A stretch of 64,000 nucleotides of DNA, from assembly GCA_039586365.1 (NCBI GenBank), contig JBDHKN010000017.1:20735-84734 (forward strand), written 5' to 3'. The notes under the pieces are model-generated. The model saw only the letters and a list, made by a program, of their open reading frames with translations. It made no database searches and was not told the DNA's origin. This document shows positions 13,100 to 23,445 of the stretch, piece after piece (position 1 is the stretch's first letter; every line of letters starts with the position of its first letter). This stretch comes from Gemmatimonadota bacterium (GTDB lineage Bacteria; Gemmatimonadota; Gemmatimonadetes; Gemmatimonadales; GWC2-71-9). Made by a program: the position numbers and the translations under genes.

Positions 13100-14770
13100 C
13101 TACCTCCTCCGCTCGTCCATCAGAATCTGGTCGAATGGGTCGATGGTTGGCTCCAGGTGCGCAGGGACACTCAGAGTGCCGCGCGCACCGGGCATCGGCA
13201 CGCGGTGGATTTGCCGGCCAACCAGCACGTCCACCGGCAGGGGAAACTCAAGCCCACCCGGGATTTGCCAAGCTAGTTCCAGAGTATTCCCACGTCTGCT
13301 GCTCCTCAGGCGAGGCAATTGTGGCTGACGGACATAGACCTCGAAGAACCAGTCTAGCTCCAGGCCAGATATCTTCTCGGCCATAGCCAGGAAATCATCA
13401 GTCGTTGCGAACCGCGTTTGCCCACCGTCCGTCACGCTCTCCATCGCAGGATCTGGATAGGCCATCCGTCGCAGTATGTACCGGAAGTCCTCGTCGCCAA
13501 CGAGATAGCGCAGGGTATGGAGTACCCAGGCACCTTTGAAGTAGATGTCGCCGCCGTAGATTTGCTTGGCTGACCTGGATTGGCGCGGCGCTAGTGCAGA
13601 GCGGTTCGAGATATTGTGCCGCAAGTTTGCGAGGTACTCTCGAGCAGCATCCACTCCTTGCGATTGCTCCAGGTACAGTGGCTGCATGTAGGACCCAAAA
13701 CCCTCGTGGAGCCACATGTCGCTCCAATCTGAGTTGGTCACTAGGTTTCCCCACCACTCGTGCGACAGTTCGTGGTGGTGCAGAGCATCAAACCCCCAGT
13801 CGACTCCATCAGTCATAGCCCCATTCATGAACTTGCCACCGTAGGCTATGATAGTCTGGTGCTCCATCCCGAGATGCGGAGTCTCGACAACGCCGTACTT
13901 GTCAGCCCGAAACGGATATGGACCTGCCACGTCCTCGAAAAACCGTAAGTGGTCGAGAATCTCGGGGAGAAGGCGTGCTGCCTTCTCATAGCTCTGCGGC
14001 AGGGTCCAGAATACAACCGGGAACACTTCGCCGGTGATGCTTGTGAAGCTGTCCTCGACCGCGCGGTAAGGTGCGATATTCAGAGCGACGTTGTAGCTGT
14101 TGATCGGAGTTGAGACAAACCAGTGGTAGGTACTGGTGTGGTCCGGGTGATGGTCCACCCCCGTCAACCTCCCGTTGCTCGCGACCACCAACGGGTCAGG
14201 GACAGTGACGTGAAGCGCCATCGAGTCGGGCTCATCTGAGGGATGATCCTTGCTGGGCCACCAGATGTCCGGCCCCTCCTGTTGGCAGGTTGTTGCGATC
14301 CAAGGTTCTCCGCTGGGGGTCCTCGACCAAGTGAATCCCCCGCTCCATGGCGGATTCGGCGCAATGCGCGGCTTGCCACCGTAGGTCACTTGAACGGTGA
14401 TCCGGTCACCGATGGTCCTGGTCCCAGGCAGTTCGATCCAGGTCTTCCCGCGACGCCGCTCGAAAGTCAGAGAGGTTCCCGATGCGGTGGGGGCCTGCAA
14501 AACGACCTCCCCGATGCCGAGCCGCTCATCGAGATCGAGTACCAGCTGATCCAACCGGGCGATTACGTCGGCCACGACTGTGAGGGTCCCGGCAATGGTG
14601 CTGTCCGAGGGTGTCACTCGCAGCCTGAGGTCGTAGAACGTGACGTCATAAGCAGCCTGTTCCGGTATTAGGGGCCCACCCGAATCGTAGGTGCCAACCT
14701 GAGAAACCGGGCTACGAGGCGCTATGGCCGCGACTAGTATCGACAGAAGAACGACTGACATTGATCTCAT
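13100..14770 (-). CDS. Secreted M1 family aminopeptidase
   Basis: Signal peptide, GMEH, HELSHEWWG...WLHEG zinc motif, IYFKGAWVLHTLR. Confidence 0.9.
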   Translation of the reverse strand: MRSMSVVLLSILVAAIAPRSPVSQVGTYDSGGPLIPEQAAYDVTFYDLRLRVTPSDSTIAGTLTVVADVIARLDQLVLDLDERLGIGEVVLQAPTASGTSLTFERRRGKTWIELPGTRTIGDRITVQVTYGGKPRIAPNPPWSGGFTWSRTPSGEPWIATTCQQEGPDIWWPSKDHPSDEPDSMALHVTVPDPLVVASNGRLTGVDHHPDHTSTYHWFVSTPINSYNVALNIAPYRAVEDSFTSITGEVFPVVFWTLPQSYEKAARLLPEILDHLRFFEDVAGPYPFRADKYGVVETPHLGMEHQTIIAYGGKFMNGAMTDGVDWGFDALHHHELSHEWWGNLVTNSDWSDMWLHEGFGSYMQPLYLEQSQGVDAAREYLANLRHNISNRSALAPRQSRSAKQIYGGDIYFKGAWVLHTLRYLVGDEDFRYILRRMAYPDPAMESVTDGGQTRFATTDDFLAMAEKISGLELDWFFEVYVRQPQLPRLRSSRRGNTLELAWQIPGGLEFPLPVDVLVGRQIHRVPMPGARGTLSVPAHLEPTIDPFDQILMDERRR

Positions 14771-14792
14771 CGTGCTCGCCCGCCGTGTTCAA

Positions 14793-16277
14793 TCACTCAG
14801 ACTTGCAGGTGCGCGTGATCCTACTGACCGCAAGCATCACAATCAGACATAGAAAGATGGGCAATATGCTCGGGTAGCGTGGCCCGAGCACCTGACCCAG
14901 AAGAGCGTTTCCACTACTGCCTAACAGGGTTCTGAGCAGACTGCCACCGTGCATCTCACCGAGTATGGCGGTAGTACCACCCACCACGACGGCCCACATT
15001 GCACCAGTAGACGTGATACCGAGCCGGCCTCGGTAGAGGCTTGCCAGGGTTGGGAACACTACTCCTCCCACAAATACGGTGTAACCCAGTAGTAGGGACG
15101 CAATGATCTCTTGTTGGAAGCCAGCAATCAACCACGCAACCAATCCAACTCCGATCAGTGCAACCTTGGTGAGCATCAGTTGCCGTGGTCGTGACATGGG
15201 CTTGCACGCACCAGCAACGTTGAGAGACAGGATGGTTGACGCAGAAATAAGCGTCGTGTCTGCCGAGGACATGATGGCGGCCAGGAATCCGGCTGTGATC
15301 AGACCGGTGAGTCCCACTGGTACTAGTTCCCGCAGAGCTGTGGGCAAGGCAGCCTCCGGGGCTAGGCTTGGGTACTGTGCGCGAATCAAGACCCCGAGTA
15401 GCGCTAAGAAGAAGGAAATGGGAATGACAACGGCGGCGGCAAGTAGCGCGGACCGTTTGGCAGCGGCATCATCCCGAGCGCAGAATATTCGGGAGTAGAT
15501 GTCGGGTCCCACTAGGTAAGGCAACCCCACAACGAGCGGATAGAAGACCACCAGATCGTACCACCCAAATTGCTCCGAAATCGGAAATCGTAGGTGCTCG
15601 CTCGGCGCAGATGCGAAGCTGGACAGAAGTCCGTCCTGGGCCGCGAGGGCGACAACAGCAAAACAGGTCAGCAGTCCACCCAAGAACAACGCAAGCTGCC
15701 AAGAATCGGTTCTGATGACCGATAGCTGTCCCCCCCAGAACGTGTACAGGACAAACACTGCAGCTACCACAGTGAGTACCGAACTGAAATCAAGCGGGGA
15801 AATACTGCTCAGGAGTCGAGCCGCCGCAATCATTTGGGCAGACACTATGCCGCACCAGGCTATCACGATCATGATTGCAGCCGGGACCGCCACTTGGTTG
15901 CCGAACGCCCTCTTCAGGATGTCTGGTAGCGTGTAGACATTGAGCGATCTTACACGAGCCGCGAGGACTAGCCCAAATGGAAGGAGTGCTGCCGCTCCTA
16001 TCAGCGACCACCACGCTGCAGTGAGGCCGCGCGAGTAGCCCATGCCAATGATACCGATGGTCGAAGATGCTCCGAAGATGGTGGCAACAAGGGAGATCGT
16101 GATTCGTCGGGTTCCGTATTGACGCCGTGCCACCCAATACGACTCCGCGGACTGGCCACGAGAGAGCCAGCCCACTAGAAGCATGACAAACAGGTATCCA
16201 CCTACGATGATTGCATCGACCACGGTCGGAACGCCGGCTTCTCCTAGCTGAATTCGCGCACGGAGATCATTTGACAA
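14793..16277 (-). CDS. Sodium:solute symporter (SSS family)
   Basis: About 13 TM segments, YWVARR, YTLPDIL, YTFWGG, AAIMSSADT; start may be GTG at 16223. Confidence 0.9.
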   Translation of the reverse strand: MSNDLRARIQLGEAGVPTVVDAIIVGGYLFVMLLVGWLSRGQSAESYWVARRQYGTRRITISLVATIFGASSTIGIIGMGYSRGLTAAWWSLIGAAALLPFGLVLAARVRSLNVYTLPDILKRAFGNQVAVPAAIMIVIAWCGIVSAQMIAAARLLSSISPLDFSSVLTVVAAVFVLYTFWGGQLSVIRTDSWQLALFLGGLLTCFAVVALAAQDGLLSSFASAPSEHLRFPISEQFGWYDLVVFYPLVVGLPYLVGPDIYSRIFCARDDAAAKRSALLAAAVVIPISFFLALLGVLIRAQYPSLAPEAALPTALRELVPVGLTGLITAGFLAAIMSSADTTLISASTILSLNVAGACKPMSRPRQLMLTKVALIGVGLVAWLIAGFQQEIIASLLLGYTVFVGGVVFPTLASLYRGRLGITSTGAMWAVVVGGTTAILGEMHGGSLLRTLLGSSGNALLGQVLGPRYPSILPIFLCLIVMLAVSRITRTCKSE

Positions 16278-16347
16278 ACGCCCTTTGTGTCTCCACCCTC
16301 ATGGGGACCATCACGATTCTCATGGAACACAACCTGCTATAAAGGCA

Positions 16348-17316
16348 ATGGTAAGCTTCACCGACAGCATCGGCTTTGCTGAGCGTGTCACCGGAGTGGC
16401 AGCTAGTCGTTGGTCGGCGCCCAGTCCAACGCTGGTCTCGGAAGTCCTGCGGCTCAGTGAGAGCATCTATGGCGGCGCCGCGTTCCATGAATCTACATTC
16501 GAAATCGGACCGTTGTGGAACTACCTGTTCCTCGTCGAGGCGGCGTCCCATTCACATTTCGACCGCCTCGTGGAGCTCGGTCGCCGAGGGTCAGTCCTTC
16601 CTTCAGGGATCCTGTGCTTGGCTGGCTCGGGGAAACAATTCCACGGCTTCAATGGTCGGCCCTGGTCCGCTCCGCCAGGCAACATCTATTTGGCAGTATA
16701 TCTAGCTCCGCACCAGCCGATCGACCACGCAGGTACAGCCTTCACAGTTCTGGCCGCAGTCTCGGTATTGGACGCGATAGACGATGTGCCCGCACTGCAT
16801 GGCCGAGCAGGAATCAAGTGGGTTAATGACGTCTTGATAGACAACGCCAAGGTGGCGGGTGTGCTCGCTTACACGCAAAGTGAAGGAGATGCCATTACGG
16901 GAGTGGTGTTGGGTATTGGATTGAACGTGGAGACGACGCCACTTGTCGAATCCACACCTTTCGTGCCACGAGTTGGTTCTCTCCGTGAGTTTGTCCCCGA
17001 GGCCGAGCGCTGCGACCAACACATGGTATTCCAGCGACTCATTATCGCCCTGGAGTCGAACTACAGCACTCTGGTGGGTGGCGACTACGCGGTTCTCTTG
17101 GATCGATATCGGCAACGTTCCGTGGCAGTAGATCGCCATGTGACGCTCTGTTCTGAAGCGTCTGCTGGTGATGAAGGAGTGGTTGCAAGGGGTCGAGTCA
17201 TAGGCTTGAGCGATGATTTGGCGCTGGAAATCGAGGGCCATGACAAACCGTTTTCGAAAGGTAGGTTGATACTAGATCCGGGCCTGCGAAGCCAATCCGA
17301 ACTGGGGCGGCAGTGA
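16348..17316 (+). CDS. Divergent biotin-[carboxylase] ligase (BPL/BirA catalytic domain, no HTH)
   Basis: GRPWSAPPGNIY, IKWVNDVL, KVAGVL, LGIGLNV motifs; GRGR loop is non-canonical. Confidence 0.8.
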   Translation: MVSFTDSIGFAERVTGVAASRWSAPSPTLVSEVLRLSESIYGGAAFHESTFEIGPLWNYLFLVEAASHSHFDRLVELGRRGSVLPSGILCLAGSGKQFHGFNGRPWSAPPGNIYLAVYLAPHQPIDHAGTAFTVLAAVSVLDAIDDVPALHGRAGIKWVNDVLIDNAKVAGVLAYTQSEGDAITGVVLGIGLNVETTPLVESTPFVPRVGSLREFVPEAERCDQHMVFQRLIIALESNYSTLVGGDYAVLLDRYRQRSVAVDRHVTLCSEASAGDEGVVARGRVIGLSDDLALEIEGHDKPFSKGRLILDPGLRSQSELGRQ

Positions 17317-17527
17317 CCTCTTGGCAGGACCCCAACCGGAGATTAGATAACGTGGGGAACAGCGGCATCTCATAGTGCCTACCGAGCGTTTCGGTCGGTC
17401 GGGCAGCGAATCTAGTGTTGAAGGCCTGTCGGAGCTTCCGACCGAATGCTCCCTTTAGAGGATTCGACGGCTCCGCGTGACTCGTTATGAGACGCTGTGG
17501 AGTTCCACAGACAAGGGAGAGACGATA

Positions 17528-17740
17528 ATGGGGCCCCCTAATATGCTGTTGATTTGTGTCTCGGCATTCACTGCCGTATTTGTGCTGCTAACATTGCTGG
17601 CCCTGGCAATGCGCAGTCTCATCGCTGTCTTCCCGGAGAGATTGGCAAAGGTCGATCCGGCCCTGCTAGCCGCCGTGAGCGCTACTGTCTCGGCCGTATT
17701 CCCGGGAACCAAGATCACGAGAGTCGAGGAGGAAAAATGA
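17528..17740 (+). CDS. oadG: Na+-translocating decarboxylase gamma subunit
   Basis: Small protein with one TM helix (VFVLLTLLAL) and AAVSA motif; ATGA overlap with the alpha subunit; AGGGAG RBS. Confidence 0.75.
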   Translation: MGPPNMLLICVSAFTAVFVLLTLLALAMRSLIAVFPERLAKVDPALLAAVSATVSAVFPGTKITRVEEEK

Positions 17741-19590
17741 TATTCACCGCATCCGGCAAGAAGATCCGGGTGATGTTCACCCCGTTTCGGGACGGCTTGC
17801 AGAGTTCGTTTGGTGGTAAAGTCCGGATACAGGACATCCTTCCTGCGATGGAGGCATCCGCGGCGGCAGGCATACGGCACTTCGAGTTCGGTGGTGGCGC
17901 TCGCTACCAAGCACCCTATTTCTACCTCGGTGAGAACCCGTTCGACGACATGCGCAAGATGCGGCAGGCGGTCGGACCGGACGTCGACTTGCAGATTCTC
18001 ACCCGCTCGGTTTCTGGAGTAACTCTCACTACTCAGAGTATTGATGGCCTGCAGCTACAGGCTAGGCTGATGAAGGCGGCGGGCACGACGTGGGATCGCA
18101 ACTTCGATTACATGAACGACGTAGAGAATCTGGTAAAAACCGGTAAGCCCATTATTGACGTGGGCATGCACCACCAGGTCTGCATTGCTCTCATGGGGTT
18201 GCCATTTCACTCGGACCGGGTACACACGCCGGAGTTCTACATCAACATCGGACGGCGGTTGCTCGAGAGTGGAATGCACATCGGCAGTATCTGCATGAAG
18301 GATGCTAGTGGCACTACTGATCCCAAGACGATCTACGATACTGCGGTCGGTCTGAAGAAGATCATGCCGCCCGAAATGCCGCTCTGGATGCACACGCACG
18401 ACACGGCGAGCACAGCGGTTGCCTGCTACATGGCCGCTATCGCAGGTGGGGCTGATGGTGTGGACTTGTCGGTGCGACCGTTTGCCAGCGGTACCGTGCA
18501 ACCAGACGCTCGGTCGCTGGCACATGGACTGAAAGGTACCGGATACCAACTCGAGATCGACGTATCGAAACTGTCGGACATCGAGGGCATGCTGAACGAC
18601 CTATTGAAGGACTATGACTTCAACCCTACTACCACCACTCCGGACGCCCGGGTACTGGGTTTCCCGATGCCTGGTGGAGCCATCGGGCCGAACGTGCACA
18701 TGATGGCCAAGGCTGGGATCCTTGAGAAGTACGGCGACGTGTTGGCCGAGTTTCCCGTTGTGGTGGAGGCTGGCGGGGCTTGGACGAGTGTTACGCCCGG
18801 CAGTCAACAGTACTGGCTGCAGGCATTCAACAACGTCCTCTACGGGCGCTGGAAGAAGATCGATCCTGGTTATGGCAAGGCGGTTTTGGGCTACTTCGGT
18901 AAGACGCCACTGCCTCCGGATGCAGAAGTAGTCAAGTATGCCTCACAGCAGCTCAACATGCCGGTGTTCGATGGGGATCCGTTGGAGGCCGCTCCGAAGA
19001 ACATCGACCCTGCGAAGCAGGCGCTCGAGGAACGTAACCTCCCCGTAACGGATGAGAACATCTTTTTGGTGATGGCAGCGATGGTTCCGGGCAAGAAGTT
19101 GGAAACCAACGAGGGCATCCGCCTGCTGGCCGGAAACCCGAAGATCGATGTACCACTGAAGAAGAAGCAAGAGGTCGCGGCTCCCGCAGCCGTGACAGCA
19201 GCGCCGGTAGTGGCTGCGCCAAGCCTCACGGGGCCTATTACCACGACGTGCACGGTAGAGGAAAACGGTGCCAAACGGAGATTCGTGGTTACGCTTGAAC
19301 CGACCGGAGTCGGGGGCGTGAGTCCGGCGGCTGGTGCCCCAGAGCCTATCGCTGCGGCGGCCGCGACAGACGGAACACCGGTGTTCTCGACGTTCGCCGG
19401 TTTCGTGGAGGTCGTCGACATCCTGGTGCAAGTCGGAGACAGTGTCAGCAAGGGGACTGCGGTTGCCGCCGTGGAAGCCATGAAGGCGAAGCACGATATC
19501 AAAGCCCCGCGAGATGGCAGGGTCAGCGCCATACACGCGAAGATCGGCGATGAGATCGATTCTTCCAAGCCGATCCTGACGATCGCCTGA
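17737..19590 (+). CDS. oadA: Oxaloacetate decarboxylase alpha / pyruvate carboxylase B-type carboxyltransferase with biotin carrier domain
   Basis: FRDGLQS, GGGAR, CMKDASG, HTH metal motif, MPGG, VTPGSQ, Ala/Pro linker, C-terminal EAMK. Confidence 0.88.
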   Translation: MIFTASGKKIRVMFTPFRDGLQSSFGGKVRIQDILPAMEASAAAGIRHFEFGGGARYQAPYFYLGENPFDDMRKMRQAVGPDVDLQILTRSVSGVTLTTQSIDGLQLQARLMKAAGTTWDRNFDYMNDVENLVKTGKPIIDVGMHHQVCIALMGLPFHSDRVHTPEFYINIGRRLLESGMHIGSICMKDASGTTDPKTIYDTAVGLKKIMPPEMPLWMHTHDTASTAVACYMAAIAGGADGVDLSVRPFASGTVQPDARSLAHGLKGTGYQLEIDVSKLSDIEGMLNDLLKDYDFNPTTTTPDARVLGFPMPGGAIGPNVHMMAKAGILEKYGDVLAEFPVVVEAGGAWTSVTPGSQQYWLQAFNNVLYGRWKKIDPGYGKAVLGYFGKTPLPPDAEVVKYASQQLNMPVFDGDPLEAAPKNIDPAKQALEERNLPVTDENIFLVMAAMVPGKKLETNEGIRLLAGNPKIDVPLKKKQEVAAPAAVTAAPVVAAPSLTGPITTTCTVEENGAKRRFVVTLEPTGVGGVSPAAGAPEPIAAAAATDGTPVFSTFAGFVEVVDILVQVGDSVSKGTAVAAVEAMKAKHDIKAPRDGRVSAIHAKIGDEIDSSKPILTIA

Positions 19591-19602
19591 AGAGGCTAGT
19601 CA

Positions 19603-20724
19603 ATGGACACAGTAGCTGAACTGCTGCGGCAGTCGGGCTTTGCTAACCTGGGCCTCGGTAACCTGGCGATGTTTGTGATCGCTGGGGTCCTCATCTACCT
19701 GGCCATCACAAAACACTACGAACCCCTTCTTCTGATCCCCATCGGATTTGGCGCCATTTTGGCCAACCTGCCGTTGGCGGAAATGGGATCGTACGGAGAA
19801 GGCATTATCAGCCTGATCTATGAGCAGGGGATCAGTACAGAGCTTTTGCCTCCTCTGATCTTTCTCGGGGTAGGCGTCCTTACCGACTTTCGCCCACTAC
19901 TCGGTCGCCCGCTCACATTTCTGCTTGGTGCTGCGGCGCAGCTCGGGATATTCGTAGCCGCACTAGGGGCGGGTTACCTGCTGAACTTCAGTCCTCAGGA
20001 AGCGGCATCAATAGGGATCATCGGAGGAGCAGACGGACCAACCTCAATCTTTCTCACGGCCCAACTTGCACCTCACCTATTGGGACCGGTGGCGGTGGCA
20101 GCCTATAGCTACATGTCGCTGGTACCGATCATTCAGCCACCCATCATGCGGTTGCTCACGACGTCGGAAGAACGAGCGATTGACATGCCTCAGGCGATAC
20201 CGGTGTCGCGGACGGCAGTGATACTGTTTCCGATCGTGACCGGTACTCTGGCTTCACTCGCCATTCCTTCGAGTGCTCCCCTCATCGGAATGCTCATGTT
20301 TGGCAATCTTCTTCGTGAGTGCGGAGTGACTGATCGACTACGCAAGACAGCCGGTGGATCGATGATTGACATAGTAACCATCTTTCTGGGTCTTGCAGTG
20401 GGTGCGACCATGGACGCGGAGCACTTCTTGAGCCACCGCACCATTCTGATTCTCGCTCTCGGGGCTGTAGCCTTCGCATTCAGTACCGCCGGTGGCGTTG
20501 TATTTGCCAAGGTGATGAACCTGTTTCTGAAACGGAAGATCAATCCCTGCATCGGTGCTGCAGGCGTGTCTGCAGTTCCCATGGCGGCACGTGTGGTGCA
20601 GAAGTTCGTGTCCGACTCGACCGACGGTCGCGTGAATCCCTTGATGCCCGCCATGGGACCGAACGTGGCTGGCGTAATTGGCTCGGCAGTGGCCGCTGGA
20701 GTGTTCCTAACCCTGCTCAGTTAG
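19603..20724 (+). CDS. oadB: Na+-translocating decarboxylase beta subunit
   Basis: EPLLLIPIGFG, GIIGGADGPTSIF, AAYSYMSLVP, GVSAVPMAARV, AMGPNVAG. Confidence 0.95.
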   Translation: MDTVAELLRQSGFANLGLGNLAMFVIAGVLIYLAITKHYEPLLLIPIGFGAILANLPLAEMGSYGEGIISLIYEQGISTELLPPLIFLGVGVLTDFRPLLGRPLTFLLGAAAQLGIFVAALGAGYLLNFSPQEAASIGIIGGADGPTSIFLTAQLAPHLLGPVAVAAYSYMSLVPIIQPPIMRLLTTSEERAIDMPQAIPVSRTAVILFPIVTGTLASLAIPSSAPLIGMLMFGNLLRECGVTDRLRKTAGGSMIDIVTIFLGLAVGATMDAEHFLSHRTILILALGAVAFAFSTAGGVVFAKVMNLFLKRKINPCIGAAGVSAVPMAARVVQKFVSDSTDGRVNPLMPAMGPNVAGVIGSAVAAGVFLTLLS

Positions 20725-20953
20725 GGCTCCCACAGCCGAAGGTGCCACTCCCCTTCCGACGGTAATGGGGGTCGGTATACTGGGGAGTAGGTCATTCCTG
20801 CCAACCTCCAACGCATCTCCACGCACGTTGGCAACGTTTGCGGTGTGACGCTAAACCCTCCGGTGACCTTTGAGGCGACGCTGGTAGTAGCCAAGCGAGA
20901 TCCCGACGGTTACGTAGTTGGATCCGCCAGCCTACGAGCCGTAGTGGCCAGTA

Positions 20954-22681
20954 ATGGAGGCAGAAATGTGGTCCGTGAAGATAGATCCCCGCAATTCGAA
21001 GGAGTACATCGCGGTATCTGAGAAGGGCCGCCCAGTGCTCCTCAATCCGTTTACGAACAAGAGCACAGCCTTTACTCAGGAAGAGAGAGACGCTCTTGGC
21101 ATCGCAGGATTGGTGCCACCCGCAGTCTCCACCATCGAGCAGCAGCTGAAGCGGACGTACGAGAACTTCAGGGCATATGCAACCAACCTAGAGAAGTTCA
21201 TGTTCCTGACCAGCCTGCAAGACCGTAACGAGACTCTGTTCTTTCGCCTTGTGCATGAGCACATCGATGAGATGATGCCGATCGTCTATACGCCGGTTGT
21301 AGGAGAAGCCTGTCAGAAGTTCTCCCACATCTATAGAAGGGCCCGCGGACTATACATCAACTATGAGCAGCGGGACTTCATAGAGAGCATCCTTCCCAAT
21401 CACCCCAGACCACCTGGGGTGATTGTGGTAACAGACGGGGAGCGCATCCTGGGCCTAGGTGACCAGGGCGCCGGTGGTATGGGCATCCCGATCGGGAAGC
21501 TCTGTCTCTACACTCTGTGTGCTGGGATTCCACCACACCTTACTCTGCCAATCATGCTCGACGTAGGAACAGACAACGAAGAACGCCTGAAAGATCCGCT
21601 GTACTTGGGCTTGCGCCAGAAACGGATACGGGGGCAGGAGTACCAGGACTTCATCGACAAGTTCGTCAATGCTGTCCGGAAGGTCTATCCGGAGGCCTTG
21701 CTGCAGTGGGAAGACTTCCTCAAGGGTAATGCGATCTACCAGCTCAAGCGGTTCCGCAATGAGTTCTGCACCTTCAACGACGACATTCAAGGGACTGCCG
21801 GTGTGGTATTGGCGGGCGTGTATAGCGGCCTTAGGATAACGGGTGCAGCGATGAAGGACCAACGCATCCTCTTTGCGGGGGCGGGAGCGTCTGCGCAAGG
21901 GATCTCTGACCTGCTCGTTTCGGCGATGCTGGAAGAAGGTCTGGCCCTGGAGGAGGCCAGGAAGCGGATTTGGACAGTCGACAGCCGTGGACTCGTAACG
22001 GAAGATCGCGCTGGTCTTGAAGACTTTAAGGCAACGTACGCACGGGGTGTGGAAGAAGTGGCGGCGTACAAGTGCCAAGATTCTTTACGGATTACGCTAG
22101 AGGAATCCGTGCTAAATGCGAAACCGACCATACTGATTGGCACGTCCGGAACGTCCGGAATGTTCACCGAATCCGTCGTGCGCGCGATGACCGATATCAA
22201 CGGGAGGCCCATGATCTTCCCGCTATCCAATCCCACAAGCAAGAGCGAATGCACTGCGGAGCAAGCGGTGCACTGGTCTGATGGGAAGGCAATAGTGGCC
22301 ACCGGGAGCCCATTCGAGCCGGTCGAGTACAATGGGAAGCGGTACCGTATCGGTCAGGGGAACAATGCATTCATCTTCCCTGGCGTCGGTCTCGGCGTAT
22401 GGGTGGGACAGGTCAAGCGTATCACTGACGGGATGTTCCTGGATGCAGCCAAGGCTCTGGCGAGCCAAGTAAAGGACGAGGACCTGGCTGCGATGGCAGT
22501 GTACCCGGAACTGACGCGAATCCGCGAATGCTCCCACTCAGTGGCGTGTGCCGTTATTCGCCGCGCCGTGGCAGAGGGACATGCTAGGGAGGAGGTCTTG
22601 GAAGATCTCGAGAGCACGGTCGAGAAGGCAATGTGGTTCCCAGCGTACCGTCCGGTGCGGTACGAACCTCGCTCCTGGTAG
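20954..22681 (+). CDS. maeA: NAD-dependent malic enzyme (large-subunit type)
   Basis: YTPVVG, VTDGERILGLGDQG, QWEDF, FNDDIQGT, GAGASA, PLSNPT, QGNNAFIFPG. Confidence 0.93.
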   Translation: MEAEMWSVKIDPRNSKEYIAVSEKGRPVLLNPFTNKSTAFTQEERDALGIAGLVPPAVSTIEQQLKRTYENFRAYATNLEKFMFLTSLQDRNETLFFRLVHEHIDEMMPIVYTPVVGEACQKFSHIYRRARGLYINYEQRDFIESILPNHPRPPGVIVVTDGERILGLGDQGAGGMGIPIGKLCLYTLCAGIPPHLTLPIMLDVGTDNEERLKDPLYLGLRQKRIRGQEYQDFIDKFVNAVRKVYPEALLQWEDFLKGNAIYQLKRFRNEFCTFNDDIQGTAGVVLAGVYSGLRITGAAMKDQRILFAGAGASAQGISDLLVSAMLEEGLALEEARKRIWTVDSRGLVTEDRAGLEDFKATYARGVEEVAAYKCQDSLRITLEESVLNAKPTILIGTSGTSGMFTESVVRAMTDINGRPMIFPLSNPTSKSECTAEQAVHWSDGKAIVATGSPFEPVEYNGKRYRIGQGNNAFIFPGVGLGVWVGQVKRITDGMFLDAAKALASQVKDEDLAAMAVYPELTRIRECSHSVACAVIRRAVAEGHAREEVLEDLESTVEKAMWFPAYRPVRYEPRSW

Positions 22682-22703
22682 AGCCGGGTAGGGGTGATTT
22701 CTT

Positions 22704-22737
22704 GGGGGGCGCTTTTGTCCTGCCCCCTCCTTTCTTT
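22704..22737 (+). terminator. Probable intrinsic terminator after the malic enzyme gene
   Basis: GGGGGC...GCCCCC stem followed by a T-rich tract, between convergent genes. Confidence 0.5.
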
Positions 22738-22752
22738 CCGCGCAGAGTATTC

Positions 22753-23445
22753 TCAGGATATAGCCCACAGTGCTGCCCTGCGAGCGTGGATCTCAGTGGT
22801 GTCAAACAGTGGCACGGGACTGTCCTCTTGCTTCACTAGCAGCGAAAGCTCGGTGCAACCCAAGATAGTTCCCTCGGCGCCCCTGCTAGCCAAATCCCTG
22901 ATGATCTCTGCGAACTGGGTCCGGGACTCGTTGTTGATGTTCCCAGCACAGAGTTCCTCATAGATGACTCGATGTATCATCTCGCGTTGGTGCTTGTCAG
23001 GTATCAAGACTTTCAAGCCGTGCATGTCGCTCAGCCGATCCCTGTAGAACGCCTGCTCCATGGTGAACTTCGTGCCCAGCAGCCCGATTCCATGAATACC
23101 AGATTCCCTCACACTGCTCGCAACCGCATCAGCAATGTGGAGTACAGGGATCTCGATGGCTCTCTGAATTGCGTCGGCCACTCGATGCATGGTGTTTGTG
23201 CACAGAACGAGGCAGTCAGCACCTGCTGCCTGGAGGGATCGGGCGGCTTGGGCGAGAATGCTCCCGGTCTTGTCCCACGCACCTGCGTGCTGCAGTTGCT
23301 CTATCTCATGGAAATCAACGCTGTGCAGCACGATCTTGGCCGAGTGTAGACCTCCCAATTGGCCATTGATCGTGCGGTTTATGATCTGGTAGTAAGAGAC
23401 CGTCGATTCCCAACTCATGCCGCCGAGTAGGCCAATTGTCTTCAC
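22753..23445 (-). CDS. Aspartate/glutamate racemase family (YgeA/RacX-like)
   Basis: IGLLGGMSWEST; both catalytic Cys present (CTNTMH, GCTE). Confidence 0.92.
   Translation of the reverse strand: MKTIGLLGGMSWESTVSYYQIINRTINGQLGGLHSAKIVLHSVDFHEIEQLQHAGAWDKTGSILAQAARSLQAAGADCLVLCTNTMHRVADAIQRAIEIPVLHIADAVASSVRESGIHGIGLLGTKFTMEQAFYRDRLSDMHGLKVLIPDKHQREMIHRVIYEELCAGNINNESRTQFAEIIRDLASRGAEGTILGCTELSLLVKQEDSPVPLFDTTEIHARRAALWAIS

Follow-up and report, generated by a model that had tools for sequence, protein, structure and literature searches.

Can a biotin protein ligase (BPL) function without the hallmark residues of its biotin pocket, and what would such an enzyme modify? The question is raised by an open reading frame of 322 codons in a stretch of 64,000 nucleotides from a Gemmatimonadota bacterium, hereafter called the window. 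The original prediction described its product as a biotin ligase homologue with a rewritten biotin-binding loop, lacking an HTH domain, and proposed a specialised ligase dedicated to the adjacent OadA, possibly with altered cofactor or acceptor specificity. The reading frame, its coordinates and the motifs AGSGKQFHGFNGRPW, SHF, KWVND and KVAGVL were exactly as that prediction gave them (Table 1).

Table 1. Features of the ligase gene and its surroundings in the window.
Feature	Position	Strand	Basis
Sodium:solute symporter, divergent from the ligase, optional cassette member, candidate biotin importer	14793..16277	-	PF00474
Promoter-like TTGACA-N17-CACCCT upstream of the ligase	16271..16299	+	Conserved in close relatives
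FHG-type biotin protein ligase, 322 aa	16348..17316	+	ORF, Pfam/TIGRFAM profiles, alignments, model, tree
Family-specific N-terminal extension (residues 1-55), predicted strand-helix-helix-strand, not HTH	16348..16512	+	Prediction, pLDDT 89
S-H-F-D motif (family S-[QH]-[YF]-D; SHF, residues 69-71) replacing S-T-N, Ser kept	16552..16563	+	Family alignments
Rewritten biotin-binding loop AGSGKQFHGFNGRPW (residues 92-106): Q112 to G95, G115 to F98, R116 to H99, R118 to F101; R121 (R104) and W123 (W106) kept	16621..16665	+	Alignments
KWVND (residues 157-161)...KVAGVLAYT (KVAGVL, residues 168-173): K157, D161 and catalytic K168 kept; Glu of KxxGxLxE replaced by Y175 (family H/Y/Q/R)	16816..16875	+	Alignments
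OadG-like membrane subunit, 70 aa from the ATG at 17528	17528..17740	+	Conserved place before oadA; PF04277 9.9 bits, below cut-off
OadA-type carboxyltransferase with C-terminal carrier; RDGxQS, KDASG, HTH and VTPGSQ present	17737..19590	+	Profiles, motifs
Non-canonical biotin carrier STFAG...EAMKAKHDI, acceptor Lys at 19483-19485	19366..19587	+	Carrier comparisons
OadB, sodium-translocating decarboxylase beta subunit	19603..20724	+	PF03977 494.7 bits; TIGR01109 over cut-off
Malic enzyme, optional cassette member	20954..22681	+	Profile matches, neighbourhood comparison

Profile and fold comparisons place the protein among the BPLs. It scored 34.5 bits against PF03099 (Pfam cut-off, 21) and 87.2 bits against the TIGR00121 birA_ligase model (cut-off, 83.1). 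Both cut-offs were passed narrowly, and other FHG-type members scored between 62 and 104 bits against TIGR00121, some of them below the cut-off. The AlphaFold model (pLDDT 92.9) contains the BPL catalytic fold and the C-terminal cap, as seen by superposition on 1wnl, and its best structural matches are biotin ligases, namely, 1wnl (Z 27.4, rmsd 2.0, 229 residues aligned, covering model residues 49-310) and 3rux (Z 27.0). We rejected a lipoate ligase or octanoyltransferase (LplA, LipB, or LipM), as the RRxxGGG motif of these enzymes is absent from the window ligase sequence and lipoate ligases matched the model with a Z of 12.4 or less. Pfam and TIGRFAM profile searches of the ligase matched no HTH family, in line with the original prediction; we do not file the enzyme under class II BirA, the repressor type. 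The prediction had overlooked residues 1-55, an extension that is conserved in the family and predicted to fold alone. Searches with this extension gave no match exceeding Z 2.9 (Foldseek, VIA), a best value of 0.85 in the Atlas, and no Pfam match of weight; it is thus without a convincing structural match, which does not by itself establish a new fold.

Upstream of the gene, TTGACA is found in all eight close relatives, followed after 17 nucleotides by xAxxxT in seven of them. This promoter-like element was missed by a consensus promoter scan and was not seen in the four distant loci inspected. The only Rfam match over positions 14500 to 23000 was at chance level, and a search of the plasmid collection at 1e-20 returned no match.

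The register of the rewritten loop was fixed by alignment to the P. horikoshii and S. aureus chains. It aligns G95 with the conserved Gln, F98 with the first Gly, H99 with the first Arg and F101 with S. aureus R122. The E. coli BirA numbers used here for the loop positions are presumably right, being taken over from the original prediction, except for R118, which was reached through S. aureus R122. The equivalence of those two residues is given in PMC5039522.

A word-index search identified 939 homologous proteins among 8,000 candidates. In the 120 of these that are listed (45 to 88% identity), many of which are named "hypothetical" or plain BirA in databases, residues S69, D72, H99, G100, R104 and W106 are invariant. 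From 1.84 billion representatives, a profile search yielded 414 clusters (50% identity) at E <= 1e-30, and columns were counted in the best 150 of these 414. Among those 150, position 69 is Ser in 144, with six gaps, while position 70 (T90) is Gln in 120 and His in 18. Position 95 (Q112) is Gly in 138 and Ser in 9, position 98 (G115) is Phe in 131, Leu in 9 and Cys in 5, and position 101 (R118) is Phe in 73, Gln in 36, His in 13, Tyr in 11, Leu in 8 and Trp in 3, with no Arg listed. At position 175, His, Tyr, Gln or Arg stands instead of Glu. The same columns in 80 ordinary ligases, taken from 82 loci of the same sets, hold Gln in 79 (Q112), Gly in 76 and Ala in 3 (G115), Arg in 78 (R118) and Glu in 78 (KxxGxLxE). 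The window ligase thus has FHGF instead of a GRGRxG loop with Gly115 and Arg118, and in the ureido-binding set of its family the Ser is kept, the Thr has become Gln or His, and the Gln has become Gly or Ser. The catalytic K168 is retained, as originally predicted, in all 150 of the best clusters, together with W158, N160 and D161; R104 and W106 are present in 148, the other two being gaps. Judged from these alignments, the pocket substitutions are far beyond chance, and the adenylation core is kept in the family.

Not every change listed in the original prediction withstood this comparison. Those at T90, Q112, G115 and R118 are conserved, but His at R116 also occurs in the P. horikoshii BPL (GHGRLNRKW) and in 3 of the 80 ordinary ligases, and KWVND is found in 35 of the 80, a count that is inflated because the scan pattern itself contained KWVND. 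Both were discarded as diagnostic marks. KWPND takes the place of KWVND in two FHG-type ligases, L242 (G160) and L008 (G005), and in each of these genomes canonical birA is reduced to a fragment. The ordinary ligases of the family to which genome G020 belongs (L161-L190) mostly read KYPND, with an insert before the catalytic Lys and, in many of them, Tyr, Phe or Leu in place of the second loop Trp.

Taken together, the comparisons make the window ligase a member of a clade of BPLs of about 310 residues without four hallmark pocket residues. The alignment and tree proposed with the original prediction bear this out: in a quick tree of 72 rows, from which L041, L042 and L045 were left out, 61 members form one clade (SH-aLRT 99), apart from the window genome's own birA. 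The tree supports a single clade and a scattering of the stand-alone members; it does not reveal in which order events took place. The 44 listed loci come from Gemmatimonadota, Zixiibacteriota, Calditrichia, KSB1, Aminicenantes, Ignavibacteria, Bacteroidetes, Marinimicrobia, Kiritimatiellae and others, and the closest named homologues of the window ligase among the matches listed are from Gemmatimonadota.

The ligase gene usually lies just upstream of oadGAB. This oadA follows it in 32 of the 44 listed loci and is absent from 8, and 4 loci end within 820 bases, giving 32 of 40 informative loci. Within the window's phylum, for which 201 genomes including the unpublished G254 were counted, the ligase and this OadA are found together in 8, and none of the 193 others holds either. 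A metagenome scan that started from the carrier found 80 loci, 47 of which reach far enough upstream; the ligase stands directly before oadG in 32 of these 47. Distances between ligases and OadAs are correlated (Mantel rho 0.60 for 24 pairs, reached by 0 of 999 permutations), but we rejected this as proof of coevolution, as it fits joint inheritance and equally a shared host phylogeny.

The OadA itself is divergent, scoring 254 bits against the TIGR01108 equivalog model (cut-off, 756.5). Its catalytic motifs, found in 24 of 24 full-length copies, and the adjacency of oadB indicate that it works like an OadA. The carrier of this OadA follows the pattern S-x-F-x-G...EAMKA-x-[HFY]-[DE]-[IV], whereas the other biotin carriers in the same genomes read EAMK[MLI] or EVMKC, and it gives weak GcvH matches below the cut-off. 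A further non-canonical carrier motif, EVMKCF, was observed in L160 (G000:C107) and L144 (G039:C80). A sister group of OadAs with 44 to 50% identity (L225, L226, L227-L239) occurs in genomes with the canonical ligase only; those of G051 and G100 have a canonical EAMKMENEI carrier, and none was seen for the rest within the loci retrieved. Across the cassettes the OadG-like protein is strongly conserved, although its score falls short of the Pfam OAD_gamma cut-off and it lacks a His-rich C terminus. Close orthologues of the symporter (58 to 66% identity) are present in 3 of the 201 genomes, the window's and two others (G146 and G213), in each beside the ligase; it is a candidate importer of biotin, or of dicarboxylate for the pump. 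Malic enzymes of two types are found repeatedly next to the ligase or oadGAB, the long NAD type of the window and, elsewhere, one that we take to be MaeB-like from sequence likeness (L010:9200-11560, L007:1646-3898, L035, L041). Their presence suggests a malate-pyruvate-oxaloacetate route tied to sodium pumping.

We asked whether the FHG-type enzyme occurs as the only biotin ligase of a genome. The window genome (86% complete) is not such a case: besides the FHG ligase it has an LplA/LipM-type gene (L002) and a canonical birA (L001), the second copy that the original prediction had proposed to look for. Most of the genomes compared are incomplete metagenome-assembled genomes and related ones are not independent, so that Fisher test values for the associations are too strong. 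Of the 43 genomes behind the listed loci, 25 show no second ligase, 16 have a second full match, 1 has a fragment and 1 a split match. In G067, a single contig of 5,458,198 bases, the sole TIGR00121 match is of the FHG type, and the only other PF03099 match is an LplA-type protein. This genome encodes AccB and AccC, both over the cut-offs, further canonical carriers and BioY, and its single contig holds no match to this OadA. The FHG ligase therefore stands alone in G067, contrary to the expectation that such homologues always co-occur with oadGAB. In G020's family, the FHG type is present in 20 of 61 genomes, of which 16 show no other ligase and 13 have no match to this OadA; the remaining 41 genomes have an ordinary ligase in 37 cases and none in 4.

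The same pattern is visible in the window's phylum, where an intact birA is missing from 3 of the 8 FHG genomes and from 2 of the 193 others. A birA match of any kind was found in 191 of those 193 (two of them split) and in 5 of the 8. The gene precedes coaX in all seven genomes inspected that keep it (G000, G002, G010, G158, G168, G210 and G246). Five genomes were chosen for lack of an intact birA, and in all five it is deleted or a remnant: it is gone from between contiguous neighbours in G021, G022, G146 and G213, and 91 codons of it are left at the usual site in G160. As the flanking genes are contiguous, the objection of an assembly gap is removed. In three genomes (G031, which is a single contig, G043 and G089) both ligases are present although no such OadA was found, a combination that redundancy alone does not account for.

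The reverse situation, the odd OadA without the ligase, was observed as well. Among 151 genomes of Zixiibacteriota, the phylum of G016, the carrier is present in 29. Four of these were known to have the adjacent ligase, and 12 of the other 25 have it adjacent too. Ten of the remaining 13 were searched: 1 has an FHG ligase elsewhere, and 9 have only a canonical GRGR-type BirA. In these nine Zixibacteria genomes, two of which are single contigs (G434 and G335), oadA and oadB are open. In one metagenome locus (L296:1717-2253), a decayed FHG ligase with stops and deletions lies between an intact symporter gene and intact oadG-oadA. Strict co-occurrence of ligase and OadA is thus broken in both directions, by FHG genomes without the OadA, by L296, and by the nine Zixibacteria genomes.

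A model of the ligase in complex with the OadA carrier scored 0.79, against 0.03 for the best control; the mark for this score is reached by 116 of 157 solved pairs and 2 of 215 mismatched pairs. The runs agree in at least 93% of contacts, with partner pLDDT of at least 88. In the predicted interface, residues 101-102, 127-133, 159-160 and 173-184 of the ligase meet residues 7-15 and 38-48 of the carrier, including the changed motifs of both proteins, and the ligase strand 173-181 is a predicted carrier contact. Because a similar complex has already been solved (2ejf/2ejg), this result shows likeness, not binding. No clear interface differences were seen between 36 oad-adjacent and 17 stand-alone ligases.

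How far do these data support a ligase dedicated to its neighbour? In hosts like the window's, the FHG enzyme might use biotin and serve a STFAG/EAMKA carrier that the resident BirA cannot modify. The link is strong: the genomes of the phylum that hold either gene hold both, and this association, 8 of 8 against 0 of 193, suggests local dependence. In G020's family, the ligase accompanies this OadA in seven of eight genomes and no ligase of any kind was seen in the eighth, metagenome loci mostly place the ligase directly upstream, and the predicted interface unites the altered residues. There is a precedent in the AMKS carrier of S. tokodaii, which E. coli BirA does not biotinylate according to PMC3048393, and local dependence is allowed because ligase-carrier selectivity varies by species (PMC3048393). 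Yet in the nine Zixibacteria genomes this carrier occurs with canonical BirA alone, the ligase of L296 has decayed beside intact oadG, oadA and symporter genes, and the ligase of G067 stands alone with ordinary acceptors. We therefore regard a lineage-limited dedicated ligase as doubtful; dedication to the adjacent OadA, as originally claimed, is partly supported by the strong genomic link and the unusual carrier, but not as a rule. Decay or inactivity of a birA paralogue, which would have left the substitutions unconserved, is hardly credible. L296 is one decayed copy, but the family comprises 414 clusters with the new residues invariant, differences between the ligase gene and a close relative number 26/25/77 by codon position, a third-position excess, the promoter is conserved, and the enzyme is the sole ligase of G067.

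The other readings concern the cofactor. An obligatory different one (lipoate or an analogue of biotin, with this OadA as its sole acceptor) could be imagined from the Lys-Ala pair, which resembles lipoyl sites (DKA; PMC2753649), and from the weak GcvH matches of the carrier. This is very unlikely: the two ligases are lost reciprocally, the carrier keeps Met before the Lys, both OadB and the catalytic motifs of OadA belong to the biotin-dependent decarboxylase type, and the model resembles BPLs far more than LplA/LipB. The altered cofactor of the original prediction is disfavoured on the same ground of reciprocal loss, whereas a broader acceptor or vitamer range may apply. A broadened cofactor range would mean that the enzyme takes, besides biotin, a vitamer (desthiobiotin or biotin sulfoxide, for example), or binds biotin with another affinity, with the symporter supplying the cofactor. 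The changes do hit ring-binding residues, symporter orthologues occur only beside the ligase, no BioY match was found in G146, G213 and G002, and some genomes (G031, G043, G089) keep both ligases. We rejected the lack of bioB, which is over the cut-off in 0 of 29 FHG genomes, as a sign of another cofactor; it is uninformative because relatives that lack the ligase seldom have bioB either (4 of 77). The presence of BioY in G067 and G000 speaks against this reading, which too is improbable. Equally a long shot is a bolder version in which the family forms a fourth structural class, whose rebuilt pocket, aromatic lid and new N-terminal domain activate scavenged vitamers that BirA handles badly, delivered by the symporter and loaded on every carboxylase of biotin-auxotrophic sediment bacteria. 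If true, it would explain the repeated eviction of birA and the genomes that keep both ligases.

We favour the explanation that the FHG-type enzyme is a true biotin ligase with a rebuilt pocket, interchangeable with ordinary BirA, and consider this likely from the sequence data. Each ligase is the only one in some genomes, beside the other's supposed acceptor type, and therefore the two are probably interchangeable, both using biotin. That they attach the same cofactor with overlapping acceptor ranges seems probable to a similar degree. The FHG ligase would make biotinyl-5'-AMP from biotin and ATP and transfer biotin to the EAMKA lysine of OadA as well as to ordinary carriers of the AccB/PccA type. 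The paired exchange of Thr for Gln or His and of Gln for Gly looks like a swap of the ureido contact, with Gln/His70 taking over that of the lost Gln112. Closure of the pocket, in place of the Arg118 network, would fall to Phe98, residue 101 (aromatic or polar) and perhaps the N-terminal extension. Against this explanation stands the fact that three of the four ureido-binding residues and R118 differ in the window ligase; the Ser, Thr, Gln and Arg of this set are described as highly conserved in all species, and dissociation was 100- and 400-fold faster in the E. coli R118 mutant (PMC5039522). The R69A variant of the M. tuberculosis BPL is reported to keep its affinity for biotin (PMC3048393), so at least one class I enzyme can do without this Arg. 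As to history, the gene may travel inside a sodium-pump cassette (symporter, ligase, oadG, oadA, oadB and malic enzyme) and equip it with a ligase of its own; the host birA would thereby become redundant, and either copy, or the pump, could later be lost.

Like the ureido-binding residues, the GRGRxG loop has been described as conserved across all species, and the removal of R118 is what created BioID. A natural family that lacks the GRGRxG motif and serves as sole ligase would imply another way to bind biotin or hold the adenylate, or a tolerance of leakiness, and its members could offer scaffolds for proximity labelling or ligase-acceptor pairs of different specificity. It also provides a clear example of an essential, almost universal gene giving way to a homologue carried on a cassette. 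Our literature search, with few subscription papers within its reach, found no description of an FHG ligase family. The likely novelty, as read from sequence, lies in a naturally occurring ligase that functions although it lacks the GRGRxG motif.

Among known systems, the profile, fold and catalytic features indicate that the enzyme works like a class I BPL, though not a canonical one, as it has neither the GRGRxG loop nor the Ser-Thr/Gln set. Three biotin ligase classes with a highly conserved pocket are distinguished (PMC5039522). With the class I enzymes of P. horikoshii (1wnl), M. tuberculosis (3rux) and A. aeolicus (2eay) the window ligase has in common the catalytic and C-terminal domains (Z 21-27), the lack of an HTH, the Ser, KWxND, the catalytic Lys and the R121/W123 equivalents, as well as, for P. 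horikoshii, the His at R116. It differs from them, at 24 to 25% identity, by replacement of T90, Q112, G115, R118 and the Glu of KxxGxLxE and by the 55-residue extension. The BPL-like protein 3bfm (PF16917 type, function unassigned) is a divergent form of the same fold (Z 19.3, rmsd 3.1, 218 residues aligned, 13% identity) that was not among the sequence matches of the window ligase, which matches PF03099 and TIGR00121. The cassette shares with the OadGAB sodium pump its gene order, carboxyltransferase motifs and beta subunit, but the OadA score lies far below the equivalog cut-off, OadG is under the Pfam cut-off, and the carrier motif differs. Prokaryotic genomes have one ligase with rare exceptions (PMC3199775), and the second birA/bpl copies of C. 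acetobutylicum, L. lactis, Halobacterium and Pyrococcus resemble the present case in giving two ligase genes per genome; a rewritten loop is not part of their description in PMC3199775, and it is by this description that we set them apart. S. tokodaii likewise has a small residue after the Lys and a carrier matched to its own ligase (PMC3048393), but there it is a single housekeeping pair, whereas the FHG enzyme is a cassette-borne second ligase whose odd carrier also occurs with canonical BirA alone. Engineered enzymes, E. coli R118G (BirA*/BioID), S. aureus R122G and M. tuberculosis R69A, also lack the Arg that holds biotinyl-AMP (PMC5039522, PMC3048393). Compared with these, the FHG family is natural and lacks the Arg family-wide, and it has a bulky residue rather than Gly or Ala at this position, together with further changes in the pocket.
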